The position numbers were made by a program, and so were the translations under genes. Positions 1 to 55,403 of a DNA stretch of 64,000 nt are shown piece after piece. Source of the stretch: Squalus acanthias. Lineage: Eukaryota. The number at the start of each line of letters is the position of its first letter. Within the stretch, counting starts at the first letter, position 1. The stretch lies in contig CM059432.1 of the NCBI GenBank assembly GCA_030390025.1, forward strand, positions 37,574,001 to 37,638,000, in the 5' to 3' direction. The notes beneath the pieces are model-generated. The model saw only the letters and a program-made list of their open reading frames with translations. It searched no databases and was not told the DNA's origin.

Positions 1-1115
1 ATATTGATCAGATGATCCCATATAAAACAAAGAGCACTATATTGTCCTTGTATAAGACCTTGGTTAGGCCTCATCTAGAATACTATGTCCAGTTTTGATC
101 CCCTCACATGGTGGGAGATATAGAGGCCCTGAAGAAGTTTCAGCGGAGGGGTACTAGAATGATACCTAGTTAAAGCTCTTAGTTATCACAATAGGTTTAG
201 AGAGCTGAGTCTTTTCACTAAGAACTCCTACTTCCACCTCCATAACAAGGCCCGACTCCACTCCTGCCTCAGCTCGTCTGCTGCTGAAACCCTCATCCAT
301 GCCTTTGCTACCTCTAAACTTGTTTATTCCAACACACTCCTGGCTGGCCTCCCATCTTCCACCCTCATAAACGTGAGGTCATCCAAAACTCTGCTGCCCG
401 TGTCCTAACTCGCACCAAGTCCTGTTCACCCATCACCCCTGTGCTCGCTGACCTACATTGGCTCCCGGTTAAAATTCTCATCCCTGTTTTCAAATCCCTC
501 CATTGCCTCAACCCTCCCTATCTCTGTAATCTTCTCCAGTCCTACAACACTCCGAGATATCTGCACTCCTCCAATTTTGACCTCTTGCGCATCCCCAATT
601 TTAATCTCTCCACCATTGGAGGCCATACCTTCAGCTGCCTAGGCCCTAAGCTCTGGAATTCCCTCCCTAAACCTCTCCGCCTCTCTACTTCTCTTTCCTC
701 CTTTAAGCCTCTCCTTAAAACCTACCTCTTTGACCAAGCTTTTGGTCATCTGCCCTAATATCACCTTATGTGGCTCGGTGTCAAATTTAGTTTGATAATG
801 CTCCTGTGAAGCGCCTTGGCACGTTTTACTATGTTAAAGGCGCTATATAAATGCAACTTCTTCTTGTTGTTGTAGAAAAGTGTAGGCTTTGGGGAGATTA
901 GATTGTGGTATTTAAAATACTATTAGTCTGTGTCCGGGTGGATAGACTATTTGAATTAAATAGATCAGGGAGAACTAGTGGATGTGAGTATAAAATATGC
1001 AAGCGCAGAACTAGGTTAGATATCAGGAAGGTTTTCTTCTTGCAGAGGCTCATAGATGTCTGGAACAAGTTCCCGGCTCATGCAGCGAGTATGGATTCAC
1101 TGCAAACGTTCAAAA
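1..1115 (+). mobile_element. Degenerate CR1 LINE 3' fragment, split by an L2 insertion
   Basis: YKTLVRPHLEYYVQF-like start. LSLFSL (~205-220) resumes as EKCRLWGD (~875), then RLIDVWNKFP. Stops are present. Confidence 0.8.
221..873 (+). mobile_element. L2 LINE 3' fragment
   Basis: RT C-terminal LADLHWLPV...GPKLWNSLP...FKPLLKTYLF, an L2-type tail (gcgctatataaatgcaa) and a (ttg)n end. It interrupts the CR1 frame. Confidence 0.85.
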
Positions 1116-1590
1116 GGACGCTTTTTGAAAATTCATCACGGGATTTCCCATCCCTAATTGTCCTTGAGAAGGTGGTGATGAGTATTTATGTGGCTGGTCC
1201 AGTTAAGTTTCTGGTCCATGGTGACCCCCAGGATGTTGATGGTGGGGGATTCGACGATGGCAATCTCATTGAATGTCAAGGGGCGGTGGTTAGACTCTCT
1301 CTTGTTGGAGATTGTCATTGCCTGGCACTTGTGTGGTGTGAATGTTACCTGCTACTTATCAGCCCAAGCCTGAATGTCGTCCAGGTCTTGCTGCATGCGG
1401 GCACGGACTGCTCTATTATCTGAGGAGTTGCGAATGGAATTGAACACCGAGCAATCATAAGCAAACATCCCCACTTCTGACCTTATGTTGGAGGGAAGGT
1501 CATTGATGAAGCAGCTGAAGATGGTTGGACCTAGGACACTACCCTGAGGAACTCCTGCAGCAATATCCTGGGGCTGAGATGATTGGCCAC
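1116..1590 (-). mobile_element. Internally deleted non-LTR retrotransposon (CR1-group), same family as 11041-11575
   Basis: Shares the 3' end motif tccctaattg(c/t)ccttgagaaggtggtg with 11100 and 32600; RT-like sequence follows. Confidence 0.65.
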
Positions 1591-1944
1591 AACCAGCTGG
1601 ACGAATTTCTAGCTGAGGTTGCTATCACTGGGTGCAATAGATAGGTGAGTTGTTGGGTGATGTGCCTTATGGTCACTGTGGTCTCCTGGAACTCGTTTTA
1701 ATTGCCTTCAGGGATCAGAGATGAATTTCCCAGAATTCTTTTTTCCTGAATTAGAAAGCCTAATTTATATTTAAATCTTTGATTCCAAGAGATAATTAGT
1801 TTCAATCCAAGCAAGACTAGCTTTCAGTTACCTGAACTAGAAAATTTCATTCACTTTGCTTCCAATTTCCACCCTTCCCTCACTTTCACATGCTCTTCCC
1901 TTTCCTTCCTTGACTTCTCTGTCTCCATTTCTGGGGATAGGCTA

Positions 1945-2808
1945 TTGACAAACATTCACTACAAGCCCACTGACTCCCACAGCTACCTGGACTATACTTC
2001 CTCCCACCCCGCCTCCTGTAAGGACTCTATTCCATTCTCCCAGTTTCTCCGTCTCCGTCACATCTGCTCTGACGATGTCACCTTCTATACTACTGCTTCC
2101 GACATGTCTTCCTTTTTCCTCAACCGAGGATTCTCCTCTACCATGGTCGACACGGCCCTTGACCGTGTCCGTTCTATTTCCCGCGCTTCTGCTCTCACCC
2201 CTGCCCCTCCCTCCCGGAACCATGATAGAGTTCCCCTTGTCCTCACCTTTCACCCCACCAGCCTCCACATTCAACGTGTCATCCTCCACCATTTCCGCCA
2301 CCTCCAGCGTGATCCCACCACCAAACACATCTTCCCCTCCCCTCCCCTTTCAGCATTCCGAAGGGACCGCTCCCTCCGCGACACCCTGGTTCACTCCTCA
2401 ATCACCCCCAACACCCCTTCCCCTTCACCCGGCACCTTCCCATGCAAGCGCAGGAGATGCAACACCTGCCCTTTTACCTCCTCACTTCCCACTGTCCAGG
2501 GCCCTAAATGCTCCTTCCAGGTGAAACAGCGATTTACTTGTACTTCTTGCAATTTAGTATACTGTATTCGCTGCTCACGATGCGGTCTCCTCTTCATTGG
2601 GGAGATCAAACGCAGATTGGGTGACCGCTTTGCGGAACACCTCCGTTCAGTCCGCAAGGGTGACCCCGAGCTTCCGGTCACCTGTCACTTTAATTCTCTG
2701 CTCCACTCCCACTCTGACTTCACCGTCATCGGCCTCTTACACTGTTCCAACAAAGCTCAACATAAGCTCAAGGAACAGCACCTCATCTTTCGATTAGACA
2801 CTTTATAG
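1945..2808 (+). pseudogene. Penelope RT thumb / GIY-YIG endonuclease coding fragment
   Basis: 287-aa open frame with PLE motifs; 5'-truncated. Confidence 0.85.
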
Positions 2809-3019
2809 CCTTCTGGACTCAACATCGAGTTCAACAATTTCAGACCATAACCTCTGCCCCTATTTTTTTTTCACATGGCAGCTGTTGATGATTCTGCCAT
2901 TCCCATTTACATCTCATCTAGAGTCATCTTTTGTTTCTGAACTTGTCCCATTACCATCTCCTTTTGCCTTGCACCATCATCCCTTTTGTCTTTTAATATC
3001 TCCTGCCTTCCATCCTATC

Positions 3020-3931
3020 TGGAAAATTTCCAAAATTTGCAGATCCCCCAAAAAATATCTAAAGGAAAAAAATAAGGACTTTGGAACTTTAAAGGAACAT
3101 GTCTGGACATGTACAGCACATGGATTGTCTGGGAATTCAAAGCCCAGCAACATTAACATTTGGACAAAGGCCCTGGGAGAAGGCCGCCCCACCCAAAACA
3201 CAGAGCCCATAGGAATGCTAGGCCCAGCAAGGAACCCAAAGCATGAGAACAATGCAAGCTTCCATGGAACAACAGCTCAACAGGATGTAAGCCATTTGAT
3301 TTGGTTTAGCATAGTTGAAGGCCCATCAAAATTTAACAAGACAATGAACAGGCCTCACCTGAAAACTCACTGCATTACGAAACCAGTTTTCGTGAGGAGT
3401 TTTGTGGGGGTGGGGGGGGTGCGAAAAAGGACTATATCTGCAGCAGGACCCAAGATTTCTTTCTCTTTTGACTCACCGACCACGTTTGGAACAACGCTCC
3501 CTCTCAGCTCTGCCCAGAAGCCACATGGTAAAGGAAGACATTCGATGACCAGAATCACCATCAACTTACCTGGCTGGATTTCGTACTGTTAATACCCCTG
3601 TTTGGTGAGCATTATCCCTGATCTCCTGAAACCGAAACCTAGCTAGAAGTGGGATTTTTGGGAGGGATAAAGGTTTTTTTCTTGTATACTGTCATTTTCC
3701 CTCACCTGCAACTGTGTGTTCCCCAAACCTGTTTAAGTGTGAAGTGTGTTTAAGTTTGTTACCTTTTAATTTTAATAAAAGTTATAGTTCTTTCATCGGA
3801 ACCTGTTGTCTACTGCATCTTTATTCACAACCCCTAAATAAGTCCAAGTTTTGAACCTGGGGCGTGGGAGCGATTCGAACCGCTCACTGAGTCAGGGGAA
3901 AGGCTGACTCTTATCACAACCACCCCCTACA
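3020..3931 (+). mobile_element. Solo LTR (912 bp)
   Basis: TG...TACA termini; 4-bp TSD tatc (3016-3019, 3932-3935); AATAAA near 3774. The 3' ~330 bp is homologous to 19089-20891. Confidence 0.85.
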
Positions 3932-4024
3932 TATCACAGACCTTCATTTTTGTTCTTTCCTCCTCTCCCCCCTTTCCCTGCCCCTGCACTTGCTTAAAAA
4001 TCTGTTACATCTCTAACTTTTTCC

Positions 4025-4061
4025 AGTTCTGATGAAGGGTCATCGACCTGAAACATTAACT
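4025..4061 (+). ncRNA. Minimal hammerhead ribozyme motif in the PLE terminal region (probably mutated in stem III)
   Basis: agtt-CTGATGA-a-gggtc-atc-gacct-GAAAC-att-aact; stem I is agtt/aact. Confidence 0.65.
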
Positions 4062-4102
4062 CTGTTTCTCTCTCCACAGATGCTGCCTGACCTGCTGAGT
4101 AT

Positions 4103-5766
4103 TGTAAGGGTTTGCGTGCGTGTCTCTCAGCCTGTGGGATTCGCGCGGCTCTGTGCAGCCTGTATGTCAGTGCGGGTTTAGGCCTTGTTGCCTGTTCTGG
4201 TCTCCAGCCAGTCTGGGAACACTAGACACACCTGTGAGTGGTTCGAATCACTCGCCCTTACGGTTCTAGACACTGGACTTAGATGCGAGAGCAGTAATGG
4301 AGATGAAACTCATGTAGACTCGGTCGAATGGTACGAAATGGAAAAATCTTTATTGCATGATATTTAAGATTACGAAATACATGTCATAAGCACAGATTAA
4401 TGACAGTACAATCTTACACACAGTTATGTAGCTAATTCTAGGGAAACGAGGAACGAACGACACACCGTAAATGGGGGCACACATTACAAGTATCCTTAAT
4501 ACTTAAACCCTCCCCTATCAATATCTGTCCTAGCTAGATTCGTAGGATTCGAGACTCATGCTCACCACTCGTGATAACTCGGAGAAATTCCGAATAGCTG
4601 ATCGGATGTTTTCACCGCAGCACCCACGTGTCGATCAGGGGGTCTCCTGGCCCTACTTGTTTACTTGCTTCTGCTCCGGCTAGCAGGCTGGAACGTCTGT
4701 TGTGATGAAGATCTGTGTTGGTTGGTTTAACATATCAGTCAACACTTAAGAGAATAATCTCTCGGTGTCCGTCATGAGGATCTGCCCTGATGGGTTTCAC
4801 AGATCAGTCAATATCTTCACGGAGAATCTTCCGGGGTCCGTTCTTTAAAGTTCAAAGAAGTCTTCCTGGCAAGGAAAAATGTCTATTCGACCTACAGGCG
4901 CGGTCGGGGCTTACTGACCGTGGCGATAAGTATGGTCTTCGTCTCTTCTCATCTCATCTCATCTCTTCTCATCTCATCTCGGGCCTTTGGTTCCGATGCC
5001 GGTTACCAACATAGGTCTTCGTGACACGACACGAGTTCAACAGTCTTTTAAAAGAGACACCAGGCAAAGCAGGAACAAGACGGCGAGTCAAGAACACAGG
5101 AGCAGCCACGAGGATAAGAGTCAATCGGATAAGAGAAAGATGGACGGTTGGAGCTTGTAATTATAGTACAAAATCTTCCGTTTCCCGCCCAACCTTAATG
5201 CCTCTTCTTTTGTTTGGGTTTGGCGCTCAAATGTCTTGTATAGGTGATCTCCGTTTTTAATGGGTTTCGGGGCTACTCGTAAATGTCTGAGTACCTGTTA
5301 ATATTTCTCCCATTGTTAAATCGGTCGGTGTTCTCCCTGGAGGGGTTTTGGGGCTTCCAAGTGTCTTGTGTAACTACCCGCTAACGGCTCTCTCATCGTA
5401 GAGTCGTTGGGATTTTACATATTAATGTCTTTGGATGGGCCCTTGATTACTTGGTACAATAGCTTTCATTCGTACCTGGGAGACCGATTTCAGTATTTAT
5501 GTGTATACTGCAAACCCATGATGTCTCGTGTGTTATCTTCAATGTGCTGAATCTTAATCGATCTTGCACAAATGTTTATTGGAACGCCATCTTGTCTGTC
5601 TGTCGAAAAGTCTAGAATGTTCCGCCACGAGGTGCGGCGGCCATTTTACAGGCTGCTTGTGTCCACTTTGAAAACCTGACAGCATTCTGCTGAAATAAAA
5701 GCTGTTTGAACGAAACTATGTGTTTTCTCCTTATGTATAAAATCGCGATATATTGCAAATTCTACA
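4103..5766 (-). mobile_element. Solo LTR-like element (1664 bp)
   Basis: TGTA...TACA termini; 4-bp TSD gtat (4099-4102, 5767-5770); splits the PLE tail gagtat|ttccagc. Orientation is tentative, taken from a minus-strand AATAAA near 4350. Confidence 0.8.
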
Positions 5767-5797
5767 GTATTTCCAGCATTTTCTGTTTTTATTCTAG

Positions 5798-5883
5798 CTT
5801 TCAGTTTCAGTTTCAGAACAAAAATAATTATTTCCAGGAAAGCTGTCATGATGAGTTGGCAGGAAACTGAGCAGCTATATAAA
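5798..5883 (+). promoter_or_regulatory. Promoter with ISRE/IRF-E repeat, GAS (STAT) element and TATA box
   Basis: ctttcagtttcagtttcag at 5798-5816, TTCCAGGAA at 5832-5840 and TATATAAA at 5876-5883, about 110 bp upstream of ATG 5990. Confidence 0.65.
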
Positions 5884-5989
5884 CACTGGGGTTAAACAAA
5901 GTCCTGCAGTACTCGAACCAGAGGAGAGAGACTCAGAGAGACAGACAGAGACAGAGAGAGAGAGAGAGCAACACAAAGCAGCTGGCAAC

Positions 5990-6029
5990 ATGAGCTGGTT
6001 CTCTTTTTCATCAGCTGGCAGAACTTCAG
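5990..6029 (+). CDS. Exon 1 of 151-aa permuted NlpC/P60-like protein gene (MSWFSFSSAGRTS)
   Basis: aacATG downstream of a TATA box; donor CAG|gtaaac; phase 1 matches exon 2. Confidence 0.6.
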
Positions 6030-6038
6030 GTAAACGAT

Positions 6039-6809
6039 GGGTCGAATTTTGCAGTCAGCGGCGAACGAACGGCACTAGCCGTTCATTATACTAGCACTTG
6101 CCCATAGACTTTCTACGGGCTTTTGTACGGAAAGTTCCTTTCAGCCAACCATCCACACAGTGCCCTCTACAGGGCATCTGGGACCTGTGTGAATAGGGCA
6201 AGCAACTGTGCATCTCCTTAACCAATCAGATTGAAGAATCATTAATGAGCAGCACAAAGACTGAAACAAGAAGTGTCAGTTAGAATATTCAATTCAATGT
6301 CAAATCAGGTAGAGAAAGCAAAATAAAACGAGGGAAAGAAAGATTGGATTAAGAGACAGAAAGAAAAAGTAAACAAAAAGATTTTTAAAATTTATTTTAC
6401 TTTTTTAAATTTCCAACAATAATTAAAATCTGAAGGAATGAGATTCAACACTGGTACGAGTTAATTTTCAGTGTCAGAGAGGTTGTCTGGCAATAATTAA
6501 GACTTACTCCACCGTTAAAAGGTTACTTCGATTGGAATGGACAAACCTAACTTTTTTCTGCGAGTTTAGTTTGTATCTTTGAGGAAAGTACAGCAAATTC
6601 ACGCCTTTCAATGTATTTGACTGGTGAGTCTCCTGGTGAGATGCCGTTATTGCACAGCTTCTGGAGGAGCAGGGCATCTCGGACAGCAACTTCCTCATTT
6701 TCAGGTTTAACTGTGGCTGTGCGGTCGTTGGAAGTTGTTGGCCAATTTCTACGTAAATAACGGTGAGCACTGTTAGCTTCACCGTTATTTCTACCGCAAG
6801 ATCAGGCCC
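6039..6809. mobile_element. Harbinger-type MITE, same family as 55262-58328, opposite orientation
   Basis: Degenerate TIRs gggtcgaattttgc / gcaagatcaggccc. Internal 6175-6240 is the reverse-complement homolog of 58125-58190. Confidence 0.7.
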
Positions 6810-9029
6810 AATAACTTTATTGTATTTCTTTTCCTCTGTCGCAGCCATTGATTTTTGTTCTGGGAATCTCTAAGGGGCTATTTTATTCTCTGTATGATTT
6901 CACTAAACTGTCTTTAGAAACTAAAGATTGTTTAGATGCAAGCACATCACGATATTTATTTCAATGCCATTCTGTACTATCCTAGTTTAAGCAATAATGA
7001 TGCCTAAAGATATGCACCCTGCATACAGTTTGAATTTAATTCAGTGTGTTTGTTTATTAATCAAAGGGTTGAAATTGCACTGTGCGGCAAATGTATTAAC
7101 AGGTTGGTAAGAAATTCCTTTGCCATTATTTTGATGAGTGTGGAGGAGTCCAGATCCCACATGTGTGAGGTGCTCATGCACGTTATTGAAAGCATATAGA
7201 CATCCTTGGAGCAAATGGCAGCTCCAGGACTATCTGCTGCACAGCCTCTCGCAGCTGAAGCCTTGCTCCCAGTCTCAGGTTTTCTCATGAATGCTCTGAT
7301 TGCTGCAATATTGGTTGTCAACTGCACTGTGGCAGCCTCCGTGGACACACTCACAGAGGGAGTAAAGTAGTATCCACTATGTGTTATGCCAATCCTGTCA
7401 TCAGGTCAGATCCTTGGGCAAAGTGGCAGAGAGGCCAGGAAAAGGGGATGGTTGGAACACACCTTGTTTGTTGGTGCTCTCCATCCAGATTGCGCCACAT
7501 CTTTAGCTATCACTCTCCCAGCTTCCCTTCCCCCTACATCACCTTGACTGCACGGGAGTCTGAAAGCAGGCAGGGCCAAGCTGCCCCTGGTTCAGCAGAT
7601 GAACTGCAGCCTGAAGCCGACCCATCTAGCTCACAGAGATCAAGGGTCACCTTGGGTCCTGGAGCCTAGCAGTAATGCCTGTCTCGGGGAACCACTTAGA
7701 CAAATGACCAGACTAGTAGGCTGTGCACAACAGACACCCAATGTTAGAAAGGGGGAAAGGCCACGGTGGAAAGAGTTAATTTGATACGGAGAAATTATGG
7801 CCCAGAATTTCCTCAATGTGATTTACACTGCTGTTGCCCCTTTAAAAATAGTGTTACATCTGCCACTGGCCTCCAAAGGGAGATACATGGACGTCTTCAT
7901 GATGTCACAAACACAAGACTTCTGCTGATTTGCATGGCAAAGTTTCCCTTAGGCCTATCACTACGGATCAGGTCAGAAACCTTGTGTACATTGTTACTGG
8001 ACCTGGCATTATGGATCTCCACCCATATTTCACAGCTCCTCTGCTATAGGCTCTTCTGGGGAACTAGGGTATAATACTTCCAACCTTTCTCCAATCTGCA
8101 CAACACCCATTAACCCCAACCCTTTTGTTTCCTGTATGATTATCAATTTTCCATCTATGACATGGGCAGTGTCTCAGTCACCCATATTCAAGGACAATAG
8201 TTGGCCCGGGTGTGGGAATAGGTCCCGGTTCATGTCTCTGTCCAATATCACTATGTGCTACATATGGGGCAGAAGTGTTAGGAAGACTGCTGTGGGAGAT
8301 GTAGAGCATCTGTGTTCAAGCATAGATATTTAACATTGAGATCAGCTCACCAGCTATTCTGCCCTTGATTAGCAGCCATCCCATTCTGAGATGACCAGCT
8401 GCCAGTTAAGGGCAGATGTCTGCCTATCAGGATGGCAACACCATTTCCCTTAGATAAGAATCAAGTTGTTCATGTTTGGTACACACAATTCCATAAGAAT
8501 TTGGCGCATTCTGCATGATCAGGGTGAATATCCTGCAGAATATCTTTTCCTTTTAATTTGGTGGTTGAGCCCCCTGATGTTCAGGATATTATTTGGATAT
8601 AATAAGCCGTATAATATAATCCATATTGTGCTTATTTGGACTGACGTGAGTGGGCCCTGTAGAATCATCTGTTGTTAAGGGAGGCAGACATCAAGGATGG
8701 TTCATGGTGAGTGGTTCACGTCAATTCCAGACCTTTTTCTGCCATATCCTCCTATTGGTCTGTTCGGCTACTTCTGCATTAGCCAGTAGATATTTACACC
8801 TCTTTGGATTGTGTGCAATAAATTCTCTTCATGGGTGGAGCTGCCATTTGCTCCAAGGCTACAGGGTGGAGAATAAATCTCACCCCAGTTTCCCAGGTAA
8901 GGGGATGAGGCTACTTTTTGTTTGGGTCCCTCCTTTGTGCCCAGTCTCACTTGGATAGTAGTTCGATGCATGTTAAAGGTCTGTAGGGTTACTAATGGTG
9001 CATTAAGTCCCCAGCTGCTGATATCTTTC

Positions 9030-9560
9030 AGAAGAGATGTTAAACCAAAGCCCCGTCTGCACCTCGGTGGATGTAAAAGATTCCATGGCGCTATTCGAAG
9101 AAGAGCAGGGGAGTTCTCCCCGGTGTCCTGGCCAATATTTATCCCTCCTTTGGCTCCTCCTTGGTTCAATGGTAACATGCTTGCTTCTGAGTCAGAAGGC
9201 CTTGAGTTGAAGCTTCATTCCAGAGACTAGAGCACATAATCTAGATCTGATGGTATCTTTCAGATAAGACATTAACTTGAGGCTCTGCCTGCTCTCTCAG
9301 GTGGATGTGAAAGACCCATGACACTATCTAAAAAGAGCAGGGGAGTTCTCCCCGGTGCCCTGGCCAATATTTATCCCTCAACCAACATCGCCAAACACAG
9401 ATTACACTATCTGGTCATTATCTTATTGCTGTTCTTGGGATCGTGCAATGCATAATTTGGCTGCCACGTTTCCTACATTATAACAGTGACTATACTTCAG
9501 AGTGTTTCATTGGCTGTAAAGTACTTATGGACGTCCTGAAGTCGTGCAAGTTGCTATATA
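9030..9560 (+). mobile_element. tRNA-derived Deu-domain SINE (SacSINE1-like), partial plus near-full copy
   Basis: Deu core cctggccaatatttatccctc...ctggtcatt...tttcctacatt and an L2-like tail. Confidence 0.75.
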
Positions 9561-10219
9561 AGTACAAGTCTTTTCTTTTTTCCGAGCAATGTTAGTTTTA
9601 GCTTGTCATATGCCAGTTCCAGCTAAGCTATGCTACACTTTTACCTAGTTATAGACACTGCTCGGGACGTCTCGGTCACCCATATTTGGGGACAACAGTG
9701 AAGTAGTTAGACAGGTGCTCGCCTAAGTGCAATTAAAAGGTAGGATTACATTTCCTGGTGACGTGTCATTTGTGCTAGATGGGCTGACCTTGCAGTTGTT
9801 AGCTTGGCCTGGGGGACTGGGGAGATCACCCAGGGCTGTGGAGTCTCTTGGACAACCATCTTGCTCTGTTGCAATGTTATCAGCTGTTACAATCTTGTTT
9901 TTGGAGGACTGGCACTGGGACTTTCCTTCTGCCTTGAGCATGGATGTCCTGGATTTGCCTGGGTCTCCTTCTGGGGATAAGTTCCAGCATCTGGATTCGA
10001 GCCAGTCACACATCTTGTGTCTTGTCTTCAGTGTGAGCAGCTCATGAGGGAAGAGGGATGTCAACTTTTGAGTCCTAATTTTCCCTTTGGGGACAGAGAT
10101 GACAGCCTTTTTGGGCTTTTTTCATCATTTAATGGAGTCTTTTACCTTGTGCAGTGGGCTGGCTGGTGCAGAGGAGAAAAGACGATTTAAGTTGACAGCT
10201 GGTCAGAGCACCTTGTTTA

Positions 10220-10640
10220 CGCTCAGTGGGTAACACTCTCGCCTCTGAGTCAGAAGGTTGTGGGTTCAAGTCCCACTCCAGAGACTTGAGCACAAAAATC
10301 TAGGCTGACATTCCAGTGTAGTACTGAGGGAGTGCTGCACTTTCAGAGGTGCTGTCTTTCTGATGAGATGTAAAACCTCAGGTGGATGTAAAAGATCCTA
10401 TGGCACTATTTTTCCCCGGTGTCCTGGCCAATATTTATCCCTCAATCAACATCTCTAAAAAAATAGATTATCTGGTCATTACCACATTGCTGTTTGTGGG
10501 AGCTTGCTGTGCGCAAATTGGCTGCCGCATTTCCTACAATACAATAGTGACTACACTTCAAAAAGTACTTCATTGGCTGTAAAGCGCTTCGGGACTGCCG
10601 GTGGTCGTGAAAGGAGCTATAGAAATGCAAGTCTTTCTTT
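10220..10640 (+). mobile_element. Deu-domain SINE (SacSINE1-like)
   Basis: tRNA-like head (gctcagtgggta...gggttcaagtccc), Deu core and tail gctatagaaatgcaagtctttc. Confidence 0.8.
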
Positions 10641-10789
10641 TTGTTCTACTTCCCTTGTTGTGATGTTATCGGAAGTCCTCCCAAAATTGTGAATTCTAAG
10701 TAGCCTTACAACATTACAAATTCTTTAAAATTCACATCATGAATCCTTTGCTTTGCTGAACATAGCAAATGACTTTTGTTATTTTACAG

Positions 10790-10967
10790 GTGGTGGAAAA
10801 CCCCATGACTTGCAGACAAAACCCCATGACTTGCAGACAAAATCTCAACTTACTGAACTGTACAACCAGCGTGTGGAAAAGGCAGAGAGAGTGCAGAGAG
10901 CCTTGAGTGGATCATCAGTAAGTGGAGTACCAATTATGGCTGGACCTTTCAGACATGAAGGTGTGAG
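10790..10967 (+). CDS. Exon 2 of permuted NlpC/P60-like protein gene (...GPFRHEGVR)
   Basis: Acceptor ttttgttattttacag, donor GAG|gtaagc; 178 nt; open frame; phases 1/2. Confidence 0.85.
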
Positions 10968-11040
10968 GTAAGCTTAGTATTTGTTTTATTGATTGGCGCT
11001 AGGTAGATAGCACTAAAAAAATACCCTTGACAGATAGGAT

Positions 11041-11575
11041 TTTTTTTTATTCGTTCATGGGATGTGGGCGTCGCTGGCAAGGCCAGCATTTATTGCCCAT
11101 CCCTAATTGCCCTTGAGAAGGTGGTGGTGAGCCGTCTTATTAAACCGCTGCAGTCCGTGTGGTGAAGGTACTCCCACAGTGTTGTTAGGTAGGGAGTTCC
11201 AGGATTTTGACCCAGCGACGATGAAAGATCGGCGATACACTTCTAAGTCAGGATGGTGTGTGACTTGGAGGGGAACTTGGAGGTGGTGGTGTTCCCATGC
11301 GCCTGCTGCCCTTGTCCTTCTAGGTGGAAGAGGTCGCGGGTTTGGGAGGTGCTGCCGAAGAAGCCTTGGCGAGTTGCTGCAGTGCATCTTGTCGATGGTA
11401 CACACTGCAGCCACGGTACGCCGGTGGTGGAGGGAGTGAATGTTTAAGGTGGTGGATGGGGTGCTTTGTCCTGGGTGGTGTTGAGCTTCTTGAGTGTTGT
11501 TGGAGCTGCACTCATCCAGGCAAGTGGAGAGTATTCCATCACACTCCTTACTTGTGCCTTGTAGATGGTGGATGG
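11041..11575 (-). mobile_element. Non-LTR retrotransposon 3' end (CR1-group)
   Basis: FIVAGSKSWNSLP...HHHLLKGN* and an A-rich tail; further copies at 18795-19088 and 32545-32730. Confidence 0.75.
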
Positions 11576-12257
11576 ATCACAGTATCATCACTGGTGACAT
11601 TGATCTTGTTCTCTTGGGGGGTATTAAATGCATTGTCTGAATGGTTGAAATACTTTTACCTGATAGTAACTGCTGTTGCCGTATAAAACAATATTCTTAC
11701 TGTTGATAATTCATTACTGCCACACAGGTGGAATACTGTAATGGGAGTGGGTCAGTGGAATTTGTAAATGGGTTATTGATTGACTTTTTTAACACATGAA
11801 AAAATAAAGTTAGCTGTGGATATTTTAAATGATCTGCCTCCTCTAAAACATAGTTGGAGTCCAGTCCTCAGTGAGTTAGGTCAAGTGCTATCCAGGGAGA
11901 AGGGCATATAACAAGGAAATTTCCCTTGAACCAATCCCATATACTCCTTATCATTAATAGTGGCTGCATTTTAAGAAATATAGATGTAAGTTTTACCAGG
12001 ATAAGTATTGCTCTATTTCTTAACTCGAACTGGACTCGTACTTTTTCTGCTGATAGGGTGGATGGGTGGCTAGGTGTCAGACTTCTGCTAGTGCCCCCTT
12101 TGATCTCCCTGCTTGGACAATGTATCAGTAAGTTTAGTGCCGCAATTATAGGATGCTACCCCCAATTCCTGTCCAGTGGAGGCAGTGAAAATCTGCTCTT
12201 AAAGAACCAGTGGTGAAACCTCTTCCCAGGGGTTAAAGTTGGGGGCCATTAAATGTC

Positions 12258-13605
12258 AGCCGCAGCTCAGTGGTAGCACTCTTGCCTCTGAGTCAGAAGA
12301 TCATGGGTTCATAGTCCCACTCCAGAGACTTGAGTACATAATCTAGGCTGACTTCAGTGCTGTACTGCAAGAGTGCTGCACTGTTGGAGGTGCTGTCTTT
12401 CGGATGAGATGTTAAACTGTGGCCCCATGTGCTCTCTCAGGTGGATGTAAAAGTTCTCATGGCACTATTTGAGAGAAGAACAGGGGAGCTCTCCTAGTAT
12501 CTTCATAGAATGATACAGCACAGAAGGAGGCCATTCAGCCCATTGTGCCTGTGCTGGCTCTTTGAAAGAGCGATGCAATTAGTTCCACTCCCCTGCTCTT
12601 TCTCCATAGCCCTGTAAATTTTTTCACTTCAAGTATGTATCCAATTTGCTTTGGAAAGTTATTATTGACTCTGCTTCCACCACCCTTTCAGGTAGTGCAT
12701 TCTAGATCGTAACAACTCGTTGCATAAAAAATGTTTCCTCATGTCGCCTTTTGTTCTTTTGCTAATTACCTTAAATCTGTGTCCTCTGGTTACCGACCCT
12801 TCTGCCAATGGAAACAATTTCTCCTTATTTACTCTATCAAAAACTTTCATGATTTTGAACACCTCTATCAAATCTCCCATGAACCTTCTCTGCTCTAAGG
12901 AGAACAACCCCGATTTCTTCAGTCTCTCTACGTAACTGAAGTCTTTCCTACCTTGTACCATTCTAGTAAATCTCCTCTGCACCCTCTCGAAGGCCTTGAC
13001 ATCCTTCCTAAAGTGTGGTGCCCAGAATTGGACACAATACTCCAGCTAGAGCCTAACCAGTGTTTTATAAAGGTTTAACATAACTTACTTGCTTTTGTAC
13101 TCTATGCCTCTATTTATATTACCAAGGATCCCATATGCCTTTTTAACAGCCTTCTCAACCTGTCCTGCCACCCTCAAAGACTTGTGTACATACTCCCCAG
13201 ATCTCTCTGTTCCTGCGCCCCCTTTAAAATTGTCCCATTTAGTTTATATTGCCTCTCCTCATTCTTGCTACCTAAATGAATCACTTCACACTTCTCTGCA
13301 TTAAATTTCATCTGCCATGTGTCTGCCCATTTCACCCGTCTGTCTATGTCCTCTGAAGTCTGTTACTATCCTCTTTACTGTTTACTACATTTCCGAGTTT
13401 TGTGTTTTGGCCAACATTTATTCCTCAGCCAATGCCTAAAACAGATTATCTGGTCATTATTTCATTGTATTTGTGGGAGCTTGCTGTGCGCAAATTGCCT
13501 GTCGCGTTTCCTACATTACAACAGTGACTGCACTTCAAAAGTTGGTTGTAAAGTGCTTTGAGACTTCCTGAGGTTGTGAAAGGTGCTATATAAATGCAAG
13601 TCTTA
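12258..13605 (+). mobile_element. Deu-domain SINE split by a CR1 insertion
   Basis: SINE head at 12258-12500; Deu core resumes at ~13405. Confidence 0.75.
12503..13404 (-). mobile_element. CR1 LINE 3' fragment
   Basis: QRRFTRMV...GLFSLEQRR..GDLIEVFKIM motif. Confidence 0.85.
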
Positions 13606-13976
13606 CCTAATATCTCATTGTCCAGGCTAACACTTGAAAAATAGTCACTCAAATGGCCACTCTTTATGCTTGAGCCTGGATAGTGAGTGCAAACCTACTC
13701 TCAGCCAACCACTGTGTATGCGCACTTCCAGCCAATATGGATGGATAGCAATTAGGAGATGATGAGGTTGATTGTAGCATTCTCTTACCTATCTTAGCTG
13801 AGACAGAGCAAGTGAACACAGATAGGGATCAAACCTAGGTCTCTCCCTGGTCTATATTACTGAAAACTGCAGCATTTACAGGACTTTAATTTACATTACT
13901 GCTGACAGAATGAGTGAACTTGAAATCTTGAAATGATCTTTAGTACAGAATGTTTTCGTTTATTTCTTGATCTTAG

Positions 13977-14085
13977 GGTTACCACAGTGAATGGGTCAGA
14001 ACTGCTGATTCACAAGGGGAATAATTTTGGTGATAGTCATCAAACAGTGGTGGTTGATGCCAAGCACATGTCAAGAGACTGGAAG
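13977..14085 (+). CDS. Exon 3 (VTTVNGSELLIHKGNNFGDSHQTVVVDAKHMSRDWK)
   Basis: Acceptor tttcttgatcttag, donor AAG|gtatgg; 109 nt; phases 2/0. Confidence 0.85.
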
Positions 14086-14219
14086 GTATGGATTAACCAT
14101 TTGATAAAATGCATATCAAAGTGAACTGTGTGTATTGGCCAAACACGAACACTAACCTTTACATCCATTTTGTGATGCAATAAACAGAATTTATTTAATT
14201 TGTGTTCATAATTTTGCAG

Positions 14220-14348
14220 GTAGTGGAACAAAGTAATGTCCAAGGATCAAAAGTCTCAGACTTTGTTAAAGCTGGTGGCAAAGATTACAACCTCTTCAAT
14301 GACAACTGTCAACATGCTGCAAGGAACATGATGAAAGAAGCCAAATAA
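14220..14348 (+). CDS. Exon 4 (VVEQSNVQGSKVSDFVKAGGKDYNLFNDNCQHAARNMMKEAK*)
   Basis: Acceptor attttgcag; phase 0; contains Y-x-L-x-x-x-N-C-x-H; TAA at 14346-14348. Confidence 0.85.
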   Translation, partial: VVEQSNVQGSKVSDFVKAGGKDYNLFNDNCQHAARNMMKEAK

Positions 14349-14564
14349 TGGTCTCAGAGGCATTGCTTATTTTTCTTAGGTCATTGCTAGTAGAATTTAG
14401 GAATTGTTTGCATAAACTGATCATTGGTCTTAATGAAAAAGTAGGAAAATGTAAGCTTTTATCTGCCGGCTCTCTTCATGCTACCTGTTTTGTGGCTGGT
14501 GTCACAACTATATTGCGCTCAGACCACCTGGAGTCCAAAGTAACAGCAAATTACAGCAACAAAA

Positions 14565-14570
14565 AATAAA
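14565..14570 (+). terminator. Candidate polyadenylation signal of the 4-exon gene
   Basis: AATAAA about 215 nt after the stop, followed by GT-rich ggtttgtttgttg. Confidence 0.55.
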
Positions 14571-15348
14571 ATACTCTACAAACTGTACAAAATAGGTTTG
14601 TTTGTTGAAGCTGAGAAGGACGTGGTTAGATCTGTTGAAGATTTTTCAACTTGTATTTTTAATTTAATTAGTAGTGTAAGTTTCCAGTTTGTCCTGATCA
14701 CAAGTTAATGTGAATGCAGAGCTGGCATATTTAAATGTAAAGCTTTCGAGACTACAAAGCATGTATTACTAGTAGTGTAAAATAGGATGGGCTTATTAGG
14801 AGTAATTGTACAAAACTGTGCTGCTGGGTTGGAGCCTTGTGCACCAGGAGCACATATTGGAAATCTGGGTACACAAGTTGTCAACAGTAGTCACCTCACC
14901 ATGTGTCAGAAACTGCTGGGCATATATCCCAATCATTACACCTATTGTTATTCCCAGAAAGTATCCCTCTTTTAAAAGCTGGGCCCTGGAGATCTAGATC
15001 CCGAGCCCACCAGCTGTGGATGGAGGTGAACACACCCTTTAGCGAGGTGCTTCCTGATCCTCCTCCAACACTTGCACCTGCTCGTGTTCACTTGTACCCT
15101 GTGCATTGCCCGTTGTGATGCCCTCCAACTGATCATCTGGATCCCCTGGCGTGGACGGCTCTGTGCTGGTGCTTGCCAGAATGAGATGCAGTGACGTGGT
15201 GCCAGGCAAGATCCTCGGTGACTGCTCCTGGGAGGGCTCCACTGCCATGTCTTCTGCCATGTCTGTTGAGACAGAAAGAGCAAACTGATAGGAAAAGGAA
15301 CTCAGAGCAACATAGCATCAAACTGCCCTTAGCAAGCAACTAGTATAG

Positions 15349-15479
15349 TAGGGTGACCATATTTTCTAAACTGTATCCGGGGACGCACAGGGTGGGAGCA
15401 CAGCAAAGTAGCCAGGACGGAAAATGTAGCATGCACAGAGTAGCGAGGCAAAATTATTTAGCAGCCTATATTTTAACAT

Positions 15480-15516
<37 letters not shown>

Positions 15517-15723
15517 GATAATTACTGCAGACGTGACGTCACACTATTGAAGCGCATTCAGACACCTGAACACCCACTCCTTCCACCCAGTGACTGAGGT
15601 CACACCTGATCCTCCTCCCCCAGTGACTGAGGTCACACCTGATCCTCCCCCCCCGCAGTGACTGAGGTCACACCTGATCCCCCCGCCCTCCCCTCCGGGA
15701 ATTGGGGACATATGGTCACCCTA
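15349..15723. mobile_element. hAT-superfamily MITE
   Basis: 14-bp TIR TAGGGTGACCATAT; 8-bp TSD tagtatag (15341-15348, 15724-15731); three internal copies of cagtgactgaggtcacacctgatcc. Confidence 0.9.
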
Positions 15724-16350
15724 TAGTATAGTGCTGTGGATGTATGTCAGCCTGTGTGCCAGTGCTTGTGGGAGGATCAAGGATAGAGTGTGAAGGAAGG
15801 ATCATTGTCATATAAATTCTTTCCTGACTCATAGGGAAAGAGATTGGCATTCATTGCGCCCATTTTTCGGGCATATACAATGACAAATTTAGCAGTGGGA
15901 CTGCCCCGACCCAATCTATGCATGGGTTTGGGCCACTCCTAAATTTATTGGGCACATTTTTTAGGCATCCTGGGTGGCCGCCTAAAACAGGCATTAGGCC
16001 CCTTGCATTTGTTAATGAGGCACCTCCTGGAATGGATGGAATGTTGGCCGGCAGGATTTAAATCAGGCCTGGGGGTTAAAATGTCCCAGACCTTATTTCT
16101 AGAGTAGTGAGTGAGTTTTCGAGCTCGCACCTGCCGAAAACTGGCCCAAAGTTAAAATCGGCACCCTTAAGATATTTTCTCAAGAGCTGCATCACTGACC
16201 ATTTCCAAATGTGGGCTTCAGGTCCCTTATGTTCCGGAGTGTACCCTTTCCTGCCCAATATCTAGTTGAATAACAGCATAATGTTGGGATCATATCAGAG
16301 AACTCTTACTCCAACACCTAACATGTATCACAAGCTGTCATATGAAATGT

Positions 16351-17672
16351 TGTGAAGGAATAAGCCATATAACCTATTCAGAAAAATACACCATTCTATG
16401 AAAGAATTCTGGCCTTATTAAAATATGACAAACTGGGTTTGGAAATCTGGAAGCCTCAACAATCTAAAGCTGTAACAGCATACAGCCTATTGAGATAAGA
16501 TAGTTGTTGACACTGAATCAATAACCTCATTGAAACAGAAGGTTGGAGGCTCCTGACGGTCTGAATCTTTGGAAAGAAGACAATGGTGCACCCTGGTTAA
16601 GGTGTTCTAAGTTACACTTCGTAAACAGGCACATAAAATTAAGAAACATATGCCTTCGTAAAAATGACATCAAGTAAAAGAAACACCTGCCGTTACACCG
16701 GTTTTGTGTTAAGCTTAAGACACCTACACAGGAGACATAATTCTGTATTGCAACCAGCTGAGGTGACTAAGAATTGCATAGATCACCCTAGTTAAGGTGT
16801 TCTAATTGCAAGAGCACAAACAGAAGGCCTTAGTAAAAATGACATCAAATAGAAACACCTGCTGTTACATCGTTTTTTATGGTAAGCTTCGAATACCTAG
16901 AGGAGAGACACGAGTCTGTATTGTTACCAGCTGAGGTAACTGTAAGAATAGCAGGGGTCAGCAGAAAAATGACTAGAGATAATTAGCTTACATCAGCAGA
17001 AAACTTCAAAGGAAATACCACTGAAAAAGGGTATAAATATTGAACTTTCAAATGGGATAATAGATTCGCTGTAAAGGGGCAAAGTGATTCTCGGCTTCAG
17101 AGGCAGGCTCTGTAAGTCTACAACTCTTTGTACCTCGGGGATCAACGGTACTGTATTTGATTTTGGTGGATATTCTGAATAAGACTCAGAACTGTAAAAC
17201 TGTAGAGAAGTTAAGATTTGAGAGTAAGGATCTCTGATAATACAATTGTAAGCTTTCTGTTTTTGGAACTGTTAATGTTGTGATTGACTCACCAACTGTA
17301 AAATACATGTCGGTTCTTTAATAAATCTATATATTTTTAGAATTGTCTCACATAATACTTCTGTATCAAACTCGCAAACTCAATCTCTGTACACTCTTTG
17401 GTGAGGAGTTGCAGAATTCTGGGGAAGTTTTCCGGACCCTCATAATATCCGGAACATTAAAGTCTAGCTAAACTTATTAAAAATGCTATCTGGCGGACGG
17501 TAACATCTTCAGGTTGTTCCTTTCCTTTAGGGAGAGATGGTCCAGACCTTTAGACCCAATTAAGCGTCTTTAGGATTCGGCTACCTCAAACTTTAGTTGA
17601 AAGTGAACGTCTGGGGAATACGCCTGATCTGGGGTAGCCCTAAAGGGGCTAGGACTAGTAATTATCCCTTCA
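16351..17672 (+). mobile_element. Solo LTR (ERV-like)
   Basis: TGTGAAGG...CCTTCA termini with atgt on both flanks; ~190-bp tandem duplication in the U3-like part; TATAAA near 17032 and AATAAA near 17320. Confidence 0.7.
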
Positions 17673-45662: not shown

Positions 45663-46904
45663 ATGGGAGCCATTTATTTCCTTCCCTCCTGGGCATCAGA
45701 TGAGGACGAACACCAGCCGTGGCACCAGCAGAACCATGAACAACAGCAGCACCAACAGCAGGAGCGCCAAGCTGCTGCTCACCCACCTGAAGCTGCACAG
45801 GCCAGAAGGGGCCAGTGCATGGAAGGCCGTCGGCGCAGGTGATACCCCCCAAACAAGGTCTACAGACACAGGGTCAGCTACCTCAACATGTCTGAGCAGC
45901 AGTGCCAAAGGCGGCTCCGACTTTTGCGAGAGGTAGTGGGTGACATCTGCGCAATGCTGCAACAAGACCTGGAGCCCAGAGGACCAGGTGGACACCCCTT
46001 ACCAGTGGCCGTCAAAGTCACCACCGCACTCAACTTTTTTGCTTCAGGCTCATTCCAGGGATCAGCAGCAGACATCAGCGGCATCTCCCAGGCGGCCGCA
46101 CACACCTGCATCACGCAGGTAACCGATGCCCTCTTTGCCATCGCGCACAATCACATCCATTTCACCAAGGATCGAGCAAGTGTCACGGCGCGTGTGGTTG
46201 GATTAGCTAATCTGGCAGGCTTTCCAAGGGTGCAGGGCGTCGTTGACTGCACACATGTGGCCCTTAAGGCACCCCATCGCAATCCAGGTATTTTTGTCAA
46301 CCGCAAGGGCTTCCACTCCCTCAACGTTCAGCTGGTGTATGACCACAAGAAGGAAGTTTTGCATGTTTGTGCCAAGTACCCTGGCAGTTGCCATGACTCC
46401 TTCATACTGCACCAGTCTAGTGTGCCTCCGCTATTCAGTCCGCCAGACCAACTTAACGGATACCTACTTGGAGAGGGCTATCCCCTGAAGACGTGGCTAA
46501 TGACGCCGTTGAGGAGCCCATCCAACGCAGCTGAGGAGAGCTACAACTCCAGCCACATTTCCACCAGAGCCATAGTCGAGCAAAACATCGGTCTGCTGAA
46601 GATGCGCTTCAGATACCTGGATGGATCAGGTGGAGCCCTGCAATACTCAGCAGCCAGGGTCTCCAGAATCGTCGTGGTTTGCTGTGCACTTCACAACATG
46701 GCACAGCGTCGTGGCTTGCAGATGCCGGAGGACCAAGTGGCTGCTCACATATCCTCCTCAGATGAGGAGGAGGAGGAGGTGGAGGAGGAGGAGGAGAGAG
46801 AGAACGAACATCTTGCAGAGGCCCATCAACCAGCGGCAGCATTACGCGAGACCATAGCTGCCCGGAATGCAAGGAACGCACTCATCTTGGCCAGATTTAC
46901 TTAG
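45663..46904 (+). pseudogene. Harbinger transposase, nearly intact (TGA at 45840-45842; 3-nt deletion at the second catalytic Asp)
   Basis: One frame from ATG 45663 through ORF 45888-46904; GVVDCTH and VEQNIG are intact; LLGEGYP replaces LLGDKGYP. Confidence 0.88.
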
Positions 46905-46906
46905 CC

Positions 46907-47996
46907 TAGAACATATAGAACATAGAACAGTACAGCACAGTACAGGCCCTTCGGCCCTCGATGTTGTGCCGAGCATTGTTCGAGACCAAGATCAAGCTAT
47001 CACACTCCCTATCACTCTGGTGTGCTCCATGTGCTTATCCAATAACCGCTTGAAAGTTCCTAAAGTGTCCGACTCCACTATCACAGCAGGCAGTCCATTC
47101 CACACCCCAACCACTCTCTGAGTAAAGAATCTACCTCGGACATCCCTTCTATATCTCCCCCCATGCACCTTATAGTTATGCCCCCTTGTAACAGCTGCCT
47201 CTACCCGAGGAAATAGTCTCTGAACATCCACTCTATCTATCCCCCTCATCATCTTATAAACCTCTATTAAGTCGCCTCTCATCCTCCTCTGCTCTAAAGA
47301 GAAAAGCCCCAACTCCCTCAATCTTTCCTCATAAGACCTCCCCCCCAAACCAGGCAGCATCCTGGTAAATCTCCTTTGCACTCTTTCCAATGCTTCCACG
47401 TCCTTCCTATAGTGAGGTGACCAGAACTGCACACAATATTCCAAATGTGGTCTCACCAAGGTCCTGTACAGTTGCAGCATAACCTCACGGTTCTTAAACT
47501 CAAACCCTCTGTTAATAAACGCCAACACACCATAGGCCTTCTTTACTGCTCTATCCACTTGAGTGGCAACCTTCAGAGATCTGTGGATATGAACCCCCAG
47601 ATCCCTCTGCTCCTCCACGTTCCTCAGAACCCTGCCGTTGACCCTGTAATCCTTATTCAAATTTGCCCTACCAAAATGAATCACCTCGCACTTATCAGGG
47701 TTAAATTCCATCTGCCATTTTTCGGCCCAGCTCTGCATCCTATCAATGTCTCTTTGCAGCCTACAACAGCCCTCCACCTCATCCACTGCTCCACCAATCT
47801 TGGTGTCATCAGCAAATTTACTGATCCACCCTTCAGTCCCCTCCTCCAAGTCATTGATAAAAATCACAAACAGCAGAGGACCCAGCACCGACCCCTGTGG
47901 CACACCGCTGGTAACTGGTCTCCAGTCCGAAAATGTTCCATCCACCACCACCCTCTGCCTTCTATGAGATAGCCAGTTACTTATCCAATCGGCCAA
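46907..47996 (-). mobile_element. Young 5'-truncated CR1 LINE
   Basis: Uninterrupted RT frame (PQGSVLGP, KFADD, RPHLEYC); (catagaa)n tail; acttag on both flanks, at the transposase stop codon. Confidence 0.92.
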
Positions 47997-48254
47997 ACTT
48001 AGACAATCAAGTACTTTTGCCTCGCAGCTTCTTACCAGAGCTACGACAATGGCCCAGACCCAGCGGATCCCTAACAATTTGATCACCATACTGACAATTG
48101 CAAGTTATCCTAAGGCCTCATTGTGGAAGTCCCATTAGCGAAATGACAGACGCCACAACTGCAGCTGTAGTCATCAGAGTTTTTATTTACACTTAACATC
48201 TGATGGCTTTTTTACATTAAACATCAAATTTCACCCAAGTGACTACCCTTGTGA

Positions 48255-50167: not shown

Positions 50168-50846
50168 TCCTCCTGCAGTTGCCTCTAAGATACAGGTCCA
50201 AAAGCTTGGCAGTCTGCAGCAGAAGCAAGGCTTGTTGCAGACCTTAAATGCAGCAGCAATGATGACGTCATCGGAGGCGACTTTCAGACTGGAATAACTC
50301 ATTGGCCATGGGTTCCCACACGTTGGAACTCAATTGGCCAATTAAGTTAAAATCGCATCATTCTCCCACATCGATCTAGATTCGGGTGGGCAACACGAAA
50401 AGCGGGTAACACGACCCCAACCTGCCCCAGTATCAAAATCCAGCCCAGTGTCTTTCACCATAGACCCACGCACATCGCCTGATTTCTCCGAATTAGAACA
50501 TCCCAATCCATTGTGTTTTTCACATGACATCAATAGTAATAAATGTATCAAACAGCATTATGAAGAATTCAGGATCATTGATGTTCCCAATTTTTTTCCT
50601 TCTGAAGGAGATGGCTGAAGCTGGGTTACAGTTCCGCAGGTTACAGCAGCTCTCCTGTTTATCACCCAAATGGCCATTATTCATATGAGCTCAGCAGAAG
50701 GAAAAATGGGCAACACATGCACCCCATGAAAGGTGCTGCAATAGCTAAGGATAACGTTGTGAGAGACCTCGGAATCTTAGTCTCAAGACTTGTCCAACCA
50801 ACGCAGAGCAGCAATCAACAAAGCCAATGTTGAACTATAGATATCA

Positions 50847-54064: not shown

Positions 54065-54450
54065 TGAGCTGGTGCCAGTGCCGCAGCTCTCAGATCATTG
54101 CACAAGTGCTCCGGCTGCCATGTGCCTGGGGAAGGGCTGCGGATCATGCGCGGCGCCTGGTGGCCGCCCCCTTGTCCTGGGTGAAGTGCTCCAGTTGGTC
54201 GGACGCGTTCCGGCTTCTCCCTCCCCACCCACCCAGCCCGTGTGTGTGTGTGTGTGTGTGCTGGGGCTGAGAGAGCGCTTCATAGTGTTCGCACAGAGCA
54301 GTGCAGGCACTCGCTTGGCTCTCTCATATGCGTTTATATATATGTACACATAAAAAAAATATATACACACAGACAGAAAAAAAAAACCAATCTATATGCA
54401 TAGATATCCACACACACTGCATTGGACACACTCAACATTAGCACGGGACG
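54065..54450 (+). promoter_or_regulatory. CABLES1 promoter / 5' UTR, CpG-rich with (CA)n and (GT)n tracts
   Basis: CpG density rises immediately upstream of ATG 54451. Confidence 0.55.
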
Positions 54451-55043: not shown

Positions 55044-55403
55044 GTTAGTATATAATCTTTACATTTTATATACAGTGATGATATTTGATCATTTTAAAAC
55101 AAATTATTGACCTGAGATGGTTCTCAATAGCAAAATAACAGTCAATACATGCCTGTTTGGGTTTCTGTATATCTATATATACATGTGTGTAGTTTTGCAT
55201 GTTATGTTTACATATGTGGATTTATGCTCTGTGTCTCAATATTATGAGCACTCAATTCATTGGGCCAGATTTTGCTCTCACAGTAACGGATAATGGCGCT
55301 CGCCGTTATTTATGCACAAATGTAACTTCAGGCGAGGGGCAGATGCCCGTTTAAATGGCAATATCCAAAAGTTGCTGCCTGAGTTGCGCTGCTCCGGCGC
55401 TAA

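Follow-up and report, generated by a model that had tools for sequence, protein, structure and literature searches.

A four-exon gene of Squalus acanthias predicted to encode a permuted NlpC/P60 thiol enzyme from an uncharacterised, largely signal-bearing animal family

A stretch of 64,000 nucleotides (nt) of the Squalus acanthias genome (GenBank assembly GCA_030390025.1, contig CM059432.1, positions 37,574,001 to 37,638,000 of the forward strand; hereafter the window, numbered from its first letter) carries between positions 5990 and 14348 a spliced gene for a 151-residue protein, which very probably adopts the permuted NlpC/P60 fold, as modelled on a homologue. What appears to be new is the recognition of this gene and its relatives as one pan-metazoan, largely secreted branch of that superfamily; databases already list equivalent genes as ‘uncharacterized’, and taken singly this gene is unremarkable. 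No literature on the family was found by gene identifiers, peptide motifs or keywords, in a search that reached neither most subscription papers nor Table S1 of PMC10318531.

That the four-exon spliced gene is real is practically beyond doubt. A preliminary description, made from the letters alone, had placed exons at 5990–6029, 10790–10967, 13977–14085 and 14220–14348, and re-derivation from the window sequence returned the same GT donors, AG acceptors and phases (1, 2 and 0), with a stop-free 151-residue product (456 nt including TAA) in which HEGVRV, LIHKG and DYNLFNDNCQHA are present as claimed. Short exons explain why the open reading frame track missed the gene. A profile derived from 16 homologues, with the window sequence left out, was searched against all six-frame stretches of the window, where its three significant segments are exons 2, 3 and 4 (E-values of 1.9e-8, 1.4e-16 and 1.4e-15; next-best stretch 1.3), co-linear and abutting on the profile (positions 17–64, 64–101 and 103–141); since the profile singles out these exons in order, the gene is not a chance reading. 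The same search found no second copy in the window, and there are no Rfam matches in 4000–17000. The features of the gene are as follows.

5878..5883, + strand: TATA-like box TATAAA, 112 nt 5′ of the ATG, seen in the sequence; putative promoter element
5920..5968, + strand: AG microsatellite seen in the sequence, presumed 5′ untranslated region (UTR), where contigs apparently end
5990..6029, + strand: coding exon 1, residues 1–13, Ser-rich and without a signal peptide; phase-1 donor CAG/GTAAAC
10790..10967, + strand: exon 2, with the N-terminal helix (LxxLYN), strand 1 and the His69 strand; sequence, contigs and profile
10797..10842, + strand: perfect 21-nt tandem duplication in exon 2, adding 7 residues
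10954..10956, + strand: codon of His69, predicted catalytic His from the homologue alignment (H72 in the homologue model)
13977..14085, + strand: exon 3, with the LIHKG strand and the family-specific TVVVDAxHMSxxW segment; sequence, contigs and profile
14011..14013, + strand: codon of His85, predicted third triad residue from the homologue alignment (H88 in the homologue model)
14220..14348, + strand: coding part of exon 4, with VSDFVKAGG, YxLxxxNC, the C-terminal helix and TAA; sequence, contigs and profile
14307..14309, + strand: codon of Cys139, predicted nucleophile from the homologue alignment (C143 in the homologue model)
14349..14577, + strand: 3′ UTR, with AATAAA at 14565–14570; contig ends

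Sixteen sequencing runs contain the 3′ part of the gene, and four of them (X1, X5, X9 and X11) were aligned to the window; their status as RNA is the tool’s guess, none being recorded as RNA, and exon joints were inferred from the table of aligned contig pieces, the joints table, crowded by repeats, omitting them. In three of the four (X1, X5 and X9), one contig joins exons 2, 3 and 4 at the predicted spacing. The X1 (716 nt) and X5 (766 nt) contigs contain exon 2 and exon 4 pieces with no differences, separated by a gap of 109 letters, the length of exon 3, with equal depth over that exon; X9, from a related organism, has the same layout with 8+20 differences, and X11 has a single DNA-like contig across 13870–14515 in which intron 3 is retained. 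Junction reads had been proposed as the check on the gene model: the joining of exons 2, 3 and 4 is borne out by these contigs, while the joint of exons 1 and 2 is not among the listed joints and is supported only indirectly. The X1 and X5 contigs have 69 and 57 letters remaining 5′ of exon 2, with projected ends at ∼5958 and ∼5970 that fall within the AG repeat, taken here as 5929–5978, where the tool says reads are cut, and the exon 2 piece runs over the CAG that also ends exon 1. At the 3′ end, the alignment stops at 14577 in X9 and at 14556 in X1, where 20 letters remain, and X5 continues to 14638. A further, low-depth X1 contig (3 vs 18.6) crosses intron 3 unspliced (14061–14241), and may be retained intron, pre-mRNA or DNA.

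In some homologue records that are mis-spliced, insertions stand at both internal junctions, P0066 (Scleropages) at R/V, and P0021 and P0077 at W-x/V; from these matching places, introns 2 and 3 look to be common with bony fish. Metagenome loci L008–L013 and L015–L021 have an intron near the boundary of GYG(D/E)S and xTVV, a position unused in the window gene. The 21-nt duplication in exon 2 is probably lineage-specific: the X9 contig aligns there from 10818 onward only, and X11 has 37 gap letters, a pattern that fits a single copy in those runs without proving it. A 33–35-nt tandem repeat in three copies lies at 15577–15688, 1.2 kb 3′ of the stop.

The spliced protein belongs to a family, as shown by its full-length match to the family profile (A3, built from homologues only; E 7.3e-53, 164 bits, residues 26–148). 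Out of 1.84 billion proteins, a phmmer search with exon 4 returned 32 at E≤0.001, a word-index search with exon 4 alone found no relative (3 candidates), and a profile search gave 43 relatives among 3,001 candidates; two more came from 7,998 longer proteins scored, both apparently mis-joined gene models, and no informative domain fusion was found among those 7,998. Over full length, the closest relatives share 50–54% identity with the window protein. The named relatives include teleosts (Scleropages, Gadus, Gymnothorax, Oryzias, Monopterus and others), the newt Pleurodeles, the shark Pristiophorus, mussels (Mytilus), the rotifer Rotaria, the tardigrade Ramazzottius and the gorgonian coral Paramuricea, with no amniote record among the named matches listed. 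Their annotations read ‘uncharacterized’ or ‘hypothetical’, apart from two Oryzias entries labelled ‘LRAT domain-containing’ by UniRef, so of the suggested ‘uncharacterised fish family’ the first word stands, and the restriction to fish does not.

Two Atlas clusters, one of chordates (108 members, 0.96) and one of molluscs (90 members, 0.92), each have no Pfam family common to their members, and a third, largely viral, lies near the family at 0.88–0.90. Of 43 candidate stretches in metagenomes, 21 are relatives, intron-split or transcript-like, with one locus holding two tandem family copies. Pattern scans, which are insensitive, confirmed no relative on viral contigs (0/26 stretches), in prokaryote genomes (0/12 and 0/137) or in phages, and they speak neither for nor against a bacterial origin. 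A 46-row tree places the window protein in no supported group, on a long end branch with no supported sister; P0073, a named shark record, matches it at only 51% identity, so that other paralogues exist. Two-domain or tandem members are found in L002, P0047, P0084 and adjacent Gymnothorax loci. Residues 365–468 of P0084 (Arctogadus) form a second, far more divergent domain copy (E 6.9e-15) that retains the His and the NC, pointing to further, distant putative paralogues in fish. In Mytilus, P0047 and P0074 have a longer loop and IC or MC in place of NC, with no Asn before the Cys, and P0047 has two tandem domains.

The residues of the predicted active site are conserved in the family, counted over the non-gap rows of 101 records that are redundant and include fragments: Cys139 in 99/99, His69 in 72/77 and His85 in 82/89, together with Tyr132 (99/100), Asn138 (95/100), Trp108 (92/93) and Met104 (93/99). 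Of the His..His..YxLxxxNCxH pattern first proposed, His69, His85, Tyr132, Asn138 and Cys139 are thus conserved; the final His of NCxH (His141) is present in only 40/98. Differences listed for X9 and X11 spare all five conserved positions.

The AlphaFold model is that of homologue P0049 (52.8% identical over 125 aa), made from a 50-row alignment, the window protein itself not having been folded; its mean predicted local distance difference test score (pLDDT) is 76.9, with 76 residues >90 and residues 1–31 disordered. H72 lies on strand 70–79 and H88 on the adjacent strand 84–89, and C143 opens the last helix (143–151). In an exhaustive structure alignment against 48,161 chains, seven of the eight top rows are permuted NlpC/P60-type proteins at Z 4.6–6.6 (PLAAT4 6.6, Aichivirus 2A 6.5, TseH 6.3, DeSI-1 6.2, YiiX 5.4, CLN5 4.7 and BcPPNE 4.6), and rows below these eight have Z ≤3.8. 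The assignment to the superfamily, already proposed from the order of His69, His85 and Cys139, is made firm by this consistent list of fold matches and its agreement with the motif, despite moderate scores; PDB sequence searches gave nothing significant. A Foldseek search of the viral library BFVD gave three matches at E≤0.001, followed by DUF4105, Ac81 and PPPDE proteins.

The gene had been described as no obvious orthologue of LRAT/PLAAT or DeSI, and this holds: Pfam scores, computed exon by exon for the window protein, lie below cut-off, and the NCEHF motif, GD motif and membrane anchor are all lacking. Pfam LRAT (PF04970) had no match at E≤0.5 in 50 members, and a separate 10-record scan gave one match at E 0.11 (13.3 bits vs a cut-off of 24.3). 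Where LRAT proteins have NCEHF(V), the window protein has NCQHA and the family NCxx(A/G), the residue three after the Cys in 95 records being Ala in 64, Gly in 29, another in 2 and Phe in none. The GD motif on strand 1, given as typical of the permuted superfamily in PMC3142127 and PMC10318531, occurs in 0/59 records between the LYN helix and the RP motif.

Within the superfamily, PLAAT4 (PDB 7zot) is the best fold match (root-mean-square deviation (rmsd) 3.4 Å over 91 residues, 11% identity), and the family shares with PLAAT/LRAT the His-His-Cys order, the His residues on adjacent strands, the Cys opening the last helix and the YxLxxxNC stretch. The PLAAT Cys-His-His triad, described with its His residues on strands 2 and 3 (PMC10102619), is found here by sequence and secondary-structure position; unlike LRAT/PLAAT, many family members have a signal-peptide-like start. 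TseH of Vibrio cholerae (PDB 6v98; rmsd 3.1 Å, 96 residues, 16% identity), whose cluster is an Atlas feature neighbour at 0.82 (a lead only), and Tox-Act1-type effectors are soluble, exported enzymes, as the signal-bearing members would be, whereas the family’s genes are animal, intron-containing and without an immunity gene. Aichivirus 2A (PDB 7zv6/7zv1; Z 6.5–6.8, 9–10% identity) is a domain inside a viral polyprotein; picornavirus 2A H-box/NC proteins are reportedly PLAAT3 homologues, according to a 2024 bioRxiv preprint (10.1101/2024.04.06.588386). The best Foldseek match is Tupanvirus A0A6N1NL70, a larger protein (E 4.4e-7, TM-score 0.54, 26% identity); with the Moumouvirus F-box/FNIP protein A0A2P1EKP2 it forms the best Foldseek matches, at 22–26% identity over ∼110 columns, and giant-virus proteins may be the nearest sister group. 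YiiX/BcPPNE (C92) and CLN5 align at Z 5.4/4.6/4.7 with 9–14% identity and have larger domains than the family. CLN5, which carries the name ‘BMP synthase’ in Atlas output, we take to stand among the lipid-linked permuted papain-like enzymes. In PMC3142127, YiiX/BcPPNE are themselves described as lipid-linked enzymes of this type, C92 having an acidic third residue and the GD motif. The family would work most like an anchorless PLAAT, or like TseH, yet is a member of neither LRAT/PLAAT nor PPPDE/DeSI.

As the preliminary description had it, the window protein has neither a signal peptide nor a transmembrane (TM) stretch (best N-terminal 9-mer 0.58, best 19-mer 0.57), and it ends 12 residues past Cys139. 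A hydrophobic N-terminal stretch is present in 23 of 30 scoreable relatives and absent from 7, on a hydropathy rule rather than SignalP applied to 43 records of which 13 were skipped, and some of the 7 may be 5′-truncated. No real C-terminal TM helix was found in relatives, the one flagged among 40 being a regular-expression mismatch in a fused transporter. By eye, the window N-terminus resembles the segment after the signal peptide in Mytilus and Lota records, and other signal-less, Ser-rich starts occur in P0060, P0024 and P0062. P0062, P0090 and P0092 are signal-less and start Met-Gly-(Asn/Ser), a possible N-myristoylation motif, which suggests a third, putative targeting mode in the family. 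A search of 1–10700 for another first exon, one encoding a signal peptide, gave six candidates that passed the donor filter, none of which was adopted; a hydrophobic candidate at ∼7000–7102 had a bin depth of 0 in X1 and X9, and of 5.4 in X5.

We propose, as a reading with about an even chance of being right on the modelled fold, that the protein is a soluble thiol enzyme with a Cys139-His69-His85 triad that cleaves or transfers lipid fatty-acyl groups. Catalytic activity as such is likely, given the conserved triad; a lipid acyl substrate, argued by analogy, could equally well prove right or wrong. His69, oriented by His85, would activate the Cys139 thiolate at the N-terminus of the last helix, as in papain-type chemistry; Cys139 would then form an acyl-thioester from a phospholipid ester or an N-acyl amide, to be resolved by water (hydrolysis) or by an acceptor (transfer). 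As it has no membrane anchor (isoelectric point (pI) 9.5), the protein would have to bind membranes as a soluble molecule. For relatives with a signal peptide, the site of action would be extracellular and microbial membranes a plausible target; the signal-less window copy would work in the cytosol or exit by a non-classical route. PMC12994826 describes a hydrophobic pocket for lipids in permuted NlpC/P60 members, and reports that Tox-Act1 acts as a phospholipase and that TseH does so in one of two assays; PMC3142127 proposes fatty-acyl amide cleavage for YiiX/BcPPNE, and PMC10318531 presents the C97 members as the isopeptidase exception among permuted lipid-directed enzymes. A soluble lipid acyl-hydrolase or -transferase is preferred because lipid or envelope substrates suit a mostly secreted family more than ubiquitin or SUMO do.

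Several observations weigh against this proposal. The top five Z values are tied and moderate (by the tool’s own caution, a match at Z<8 may reflect a common arrangement), the range 6.2–6.6 tying lipid enzymes with the isopeptidase DeSI-1, and the third row is an unclassified Euglena chain (Z 6.4, rmsd 9.5). No PDB chain reached E≤0.001 with Foldseek, where Aichivirus 2A, TseH and parechovirus 2A ranked 2nd, 5th and 10th below significance. The only recurring Pfam signal is C97/PPPDE, in 6 of 50 members and always sub-threshold. The window protein lacks a TM anchor, in contrast to PLAAT1–4, which according to PMC10102619 need their C-terminal one for full function, it being absent in PLAAT5. 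Only a minority of the relatives found share the window protein’s lack of a signal peptide, and Ala51 stands where 70/73 relatives have Pro. Finally, the listed differences from X9, an incomplete list, comprise 9 residue changes and 4 silent codons; the resulting ratio of residue-changing to silent differences per site (pN/pS) of 0.54–0.74 is not distinguishable from 1 (Fisher p 0.33–0.53 against equality), and these counts also fit relaxed selection on the window copy.

A role in defence, suggested by small size, basic pI, secretion, tandem copies and fast change, is tentative for the family. More speculative still is the wider picture in which aquatic animals as far apart as corals and newts, sharks and teleosts included, would possess an undescribed family of small, mostly secreted Cys-His-His enzymes. 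These would attack lipids or lipoproteins of the bacterial envelope, as the host’s equivalent of the permuted NlpC/P60 toxins of type VI secretion systems (T6SS), and the window gene would be a signal-less intracellular branch.

A related but improbable reading would make the family a host-defence amidase or endopeptidase that cuts cell-wall peptides, or the amide-linked acyl chain of lipoproteins, as an animal counterpart of TseH-like T6SS effectors. Its members are small, mostly basic and mostly signal-bearing, the tandem and two-domain records noted above would suit it, and TseH is among the top fold matches. Locus L005 (273–959, + strand) further combines a signal peptide, a ∼80-residue Cys-containing all-beta domain and the family domain; by eye, the extra domain resembles SH3b in its motif, a resemblance that is unconfirmed. 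This domain has no Pfam, NCBIfam or PDB sequence match, its model is poor (pLDDT 43.7, best Z 2.3), and it occurs in only 1 of 21 loci. SH3b domains bind peptidoglycan and occur in oyster immune proteins (PMC11810698), but in PMC12994826 peptidoglycan hydrolysis is assigned to canonical rather than permuted members, and the window copy has no signal peptide.

It is rather unlikely that the protein is a DeSI/PPPDE-like isopeptidase that acts in the cytosol to remove ubiquitin, SUMO or a modifier of that kind. In its favour, DeSI-1 (PDB 2wp7) aligns with the lowest rmsd (2.8 Å over 92 residues, 18% identity), C97 is the commonest sub-threshold family, and the window copy, with no GD motif and, like DeSI/PPPDE, no TM anchor, is probably cytosolic. 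The match of exon 4 to Peptidase_C97 (PF05903; E 0.0076) reaches 16.5 bits vs a cut-off of 29.2 and covers only the YxLxxxNC stretch, the best full-length homologue reaching 19 bits, also below cut-off. The third His is retained where PPPDE1 has a Phe and hence, in the account of PMC3142127, a dyad; and ubiquitin or SUMO substrates are disfavoured for the family as a whole, given that most scoreable relatives, unlike DeSI, look secreted.

That the window copy is an expressed but drifting or non-catalytic paralogue, its constraint relaxed after loss of secretion, is similarly doubtful: the missing signal peptide, Ala51, the 7-residue duplication, a pN/pS of ∼0.5–0.7 vs X9, the long end branch without supported sister and the 51% identity of P0073 would agree with it, but the frame is open, splice sites are intact, transcript-like contigs occur in three runs with three organism codes, the listed differences leave the conserved site untouched, and signal-less Ser-rich starts recur elsewhere in the family.

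Elsewhere in the window, a DDE_Tnp_4 nuclease frame (45843–46901, + strand, E 9e-33) converges with a Myb/SANT-like frame (49898–50329, − strand, E 5.5e-12), with a reverse-transcriptase fragment (46995–48104, − strand) between them; we take the pair to be the two-gene layout of a PIF/Harbinger-type transposon. An open frame at 54448–55107 (+ strand), with no Pfam match, is presumably the first exon of CABLES1, from its motif RRRQAALSFLTNISLDG, and ∼40 kb of repeats separate it from the four-exon gene.

The animal permuted NlpC/P60 enzymes described in the accounts drawn on here (LRAT/PLAAT, DeSI, MKROS and TMEM222) act on lipids or ubiquitin-like tags. The present family would add a separate branch, with an intact triad and no Pfam model, in several animal phyla, whose mostly signal-bearing members imply an extracellular thiol enzyme, as predicted from sequence. 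With ∼125 residues and one Cys, the protein should be easily expressed and tested, and teleost orthologue candidates are available for genetics.

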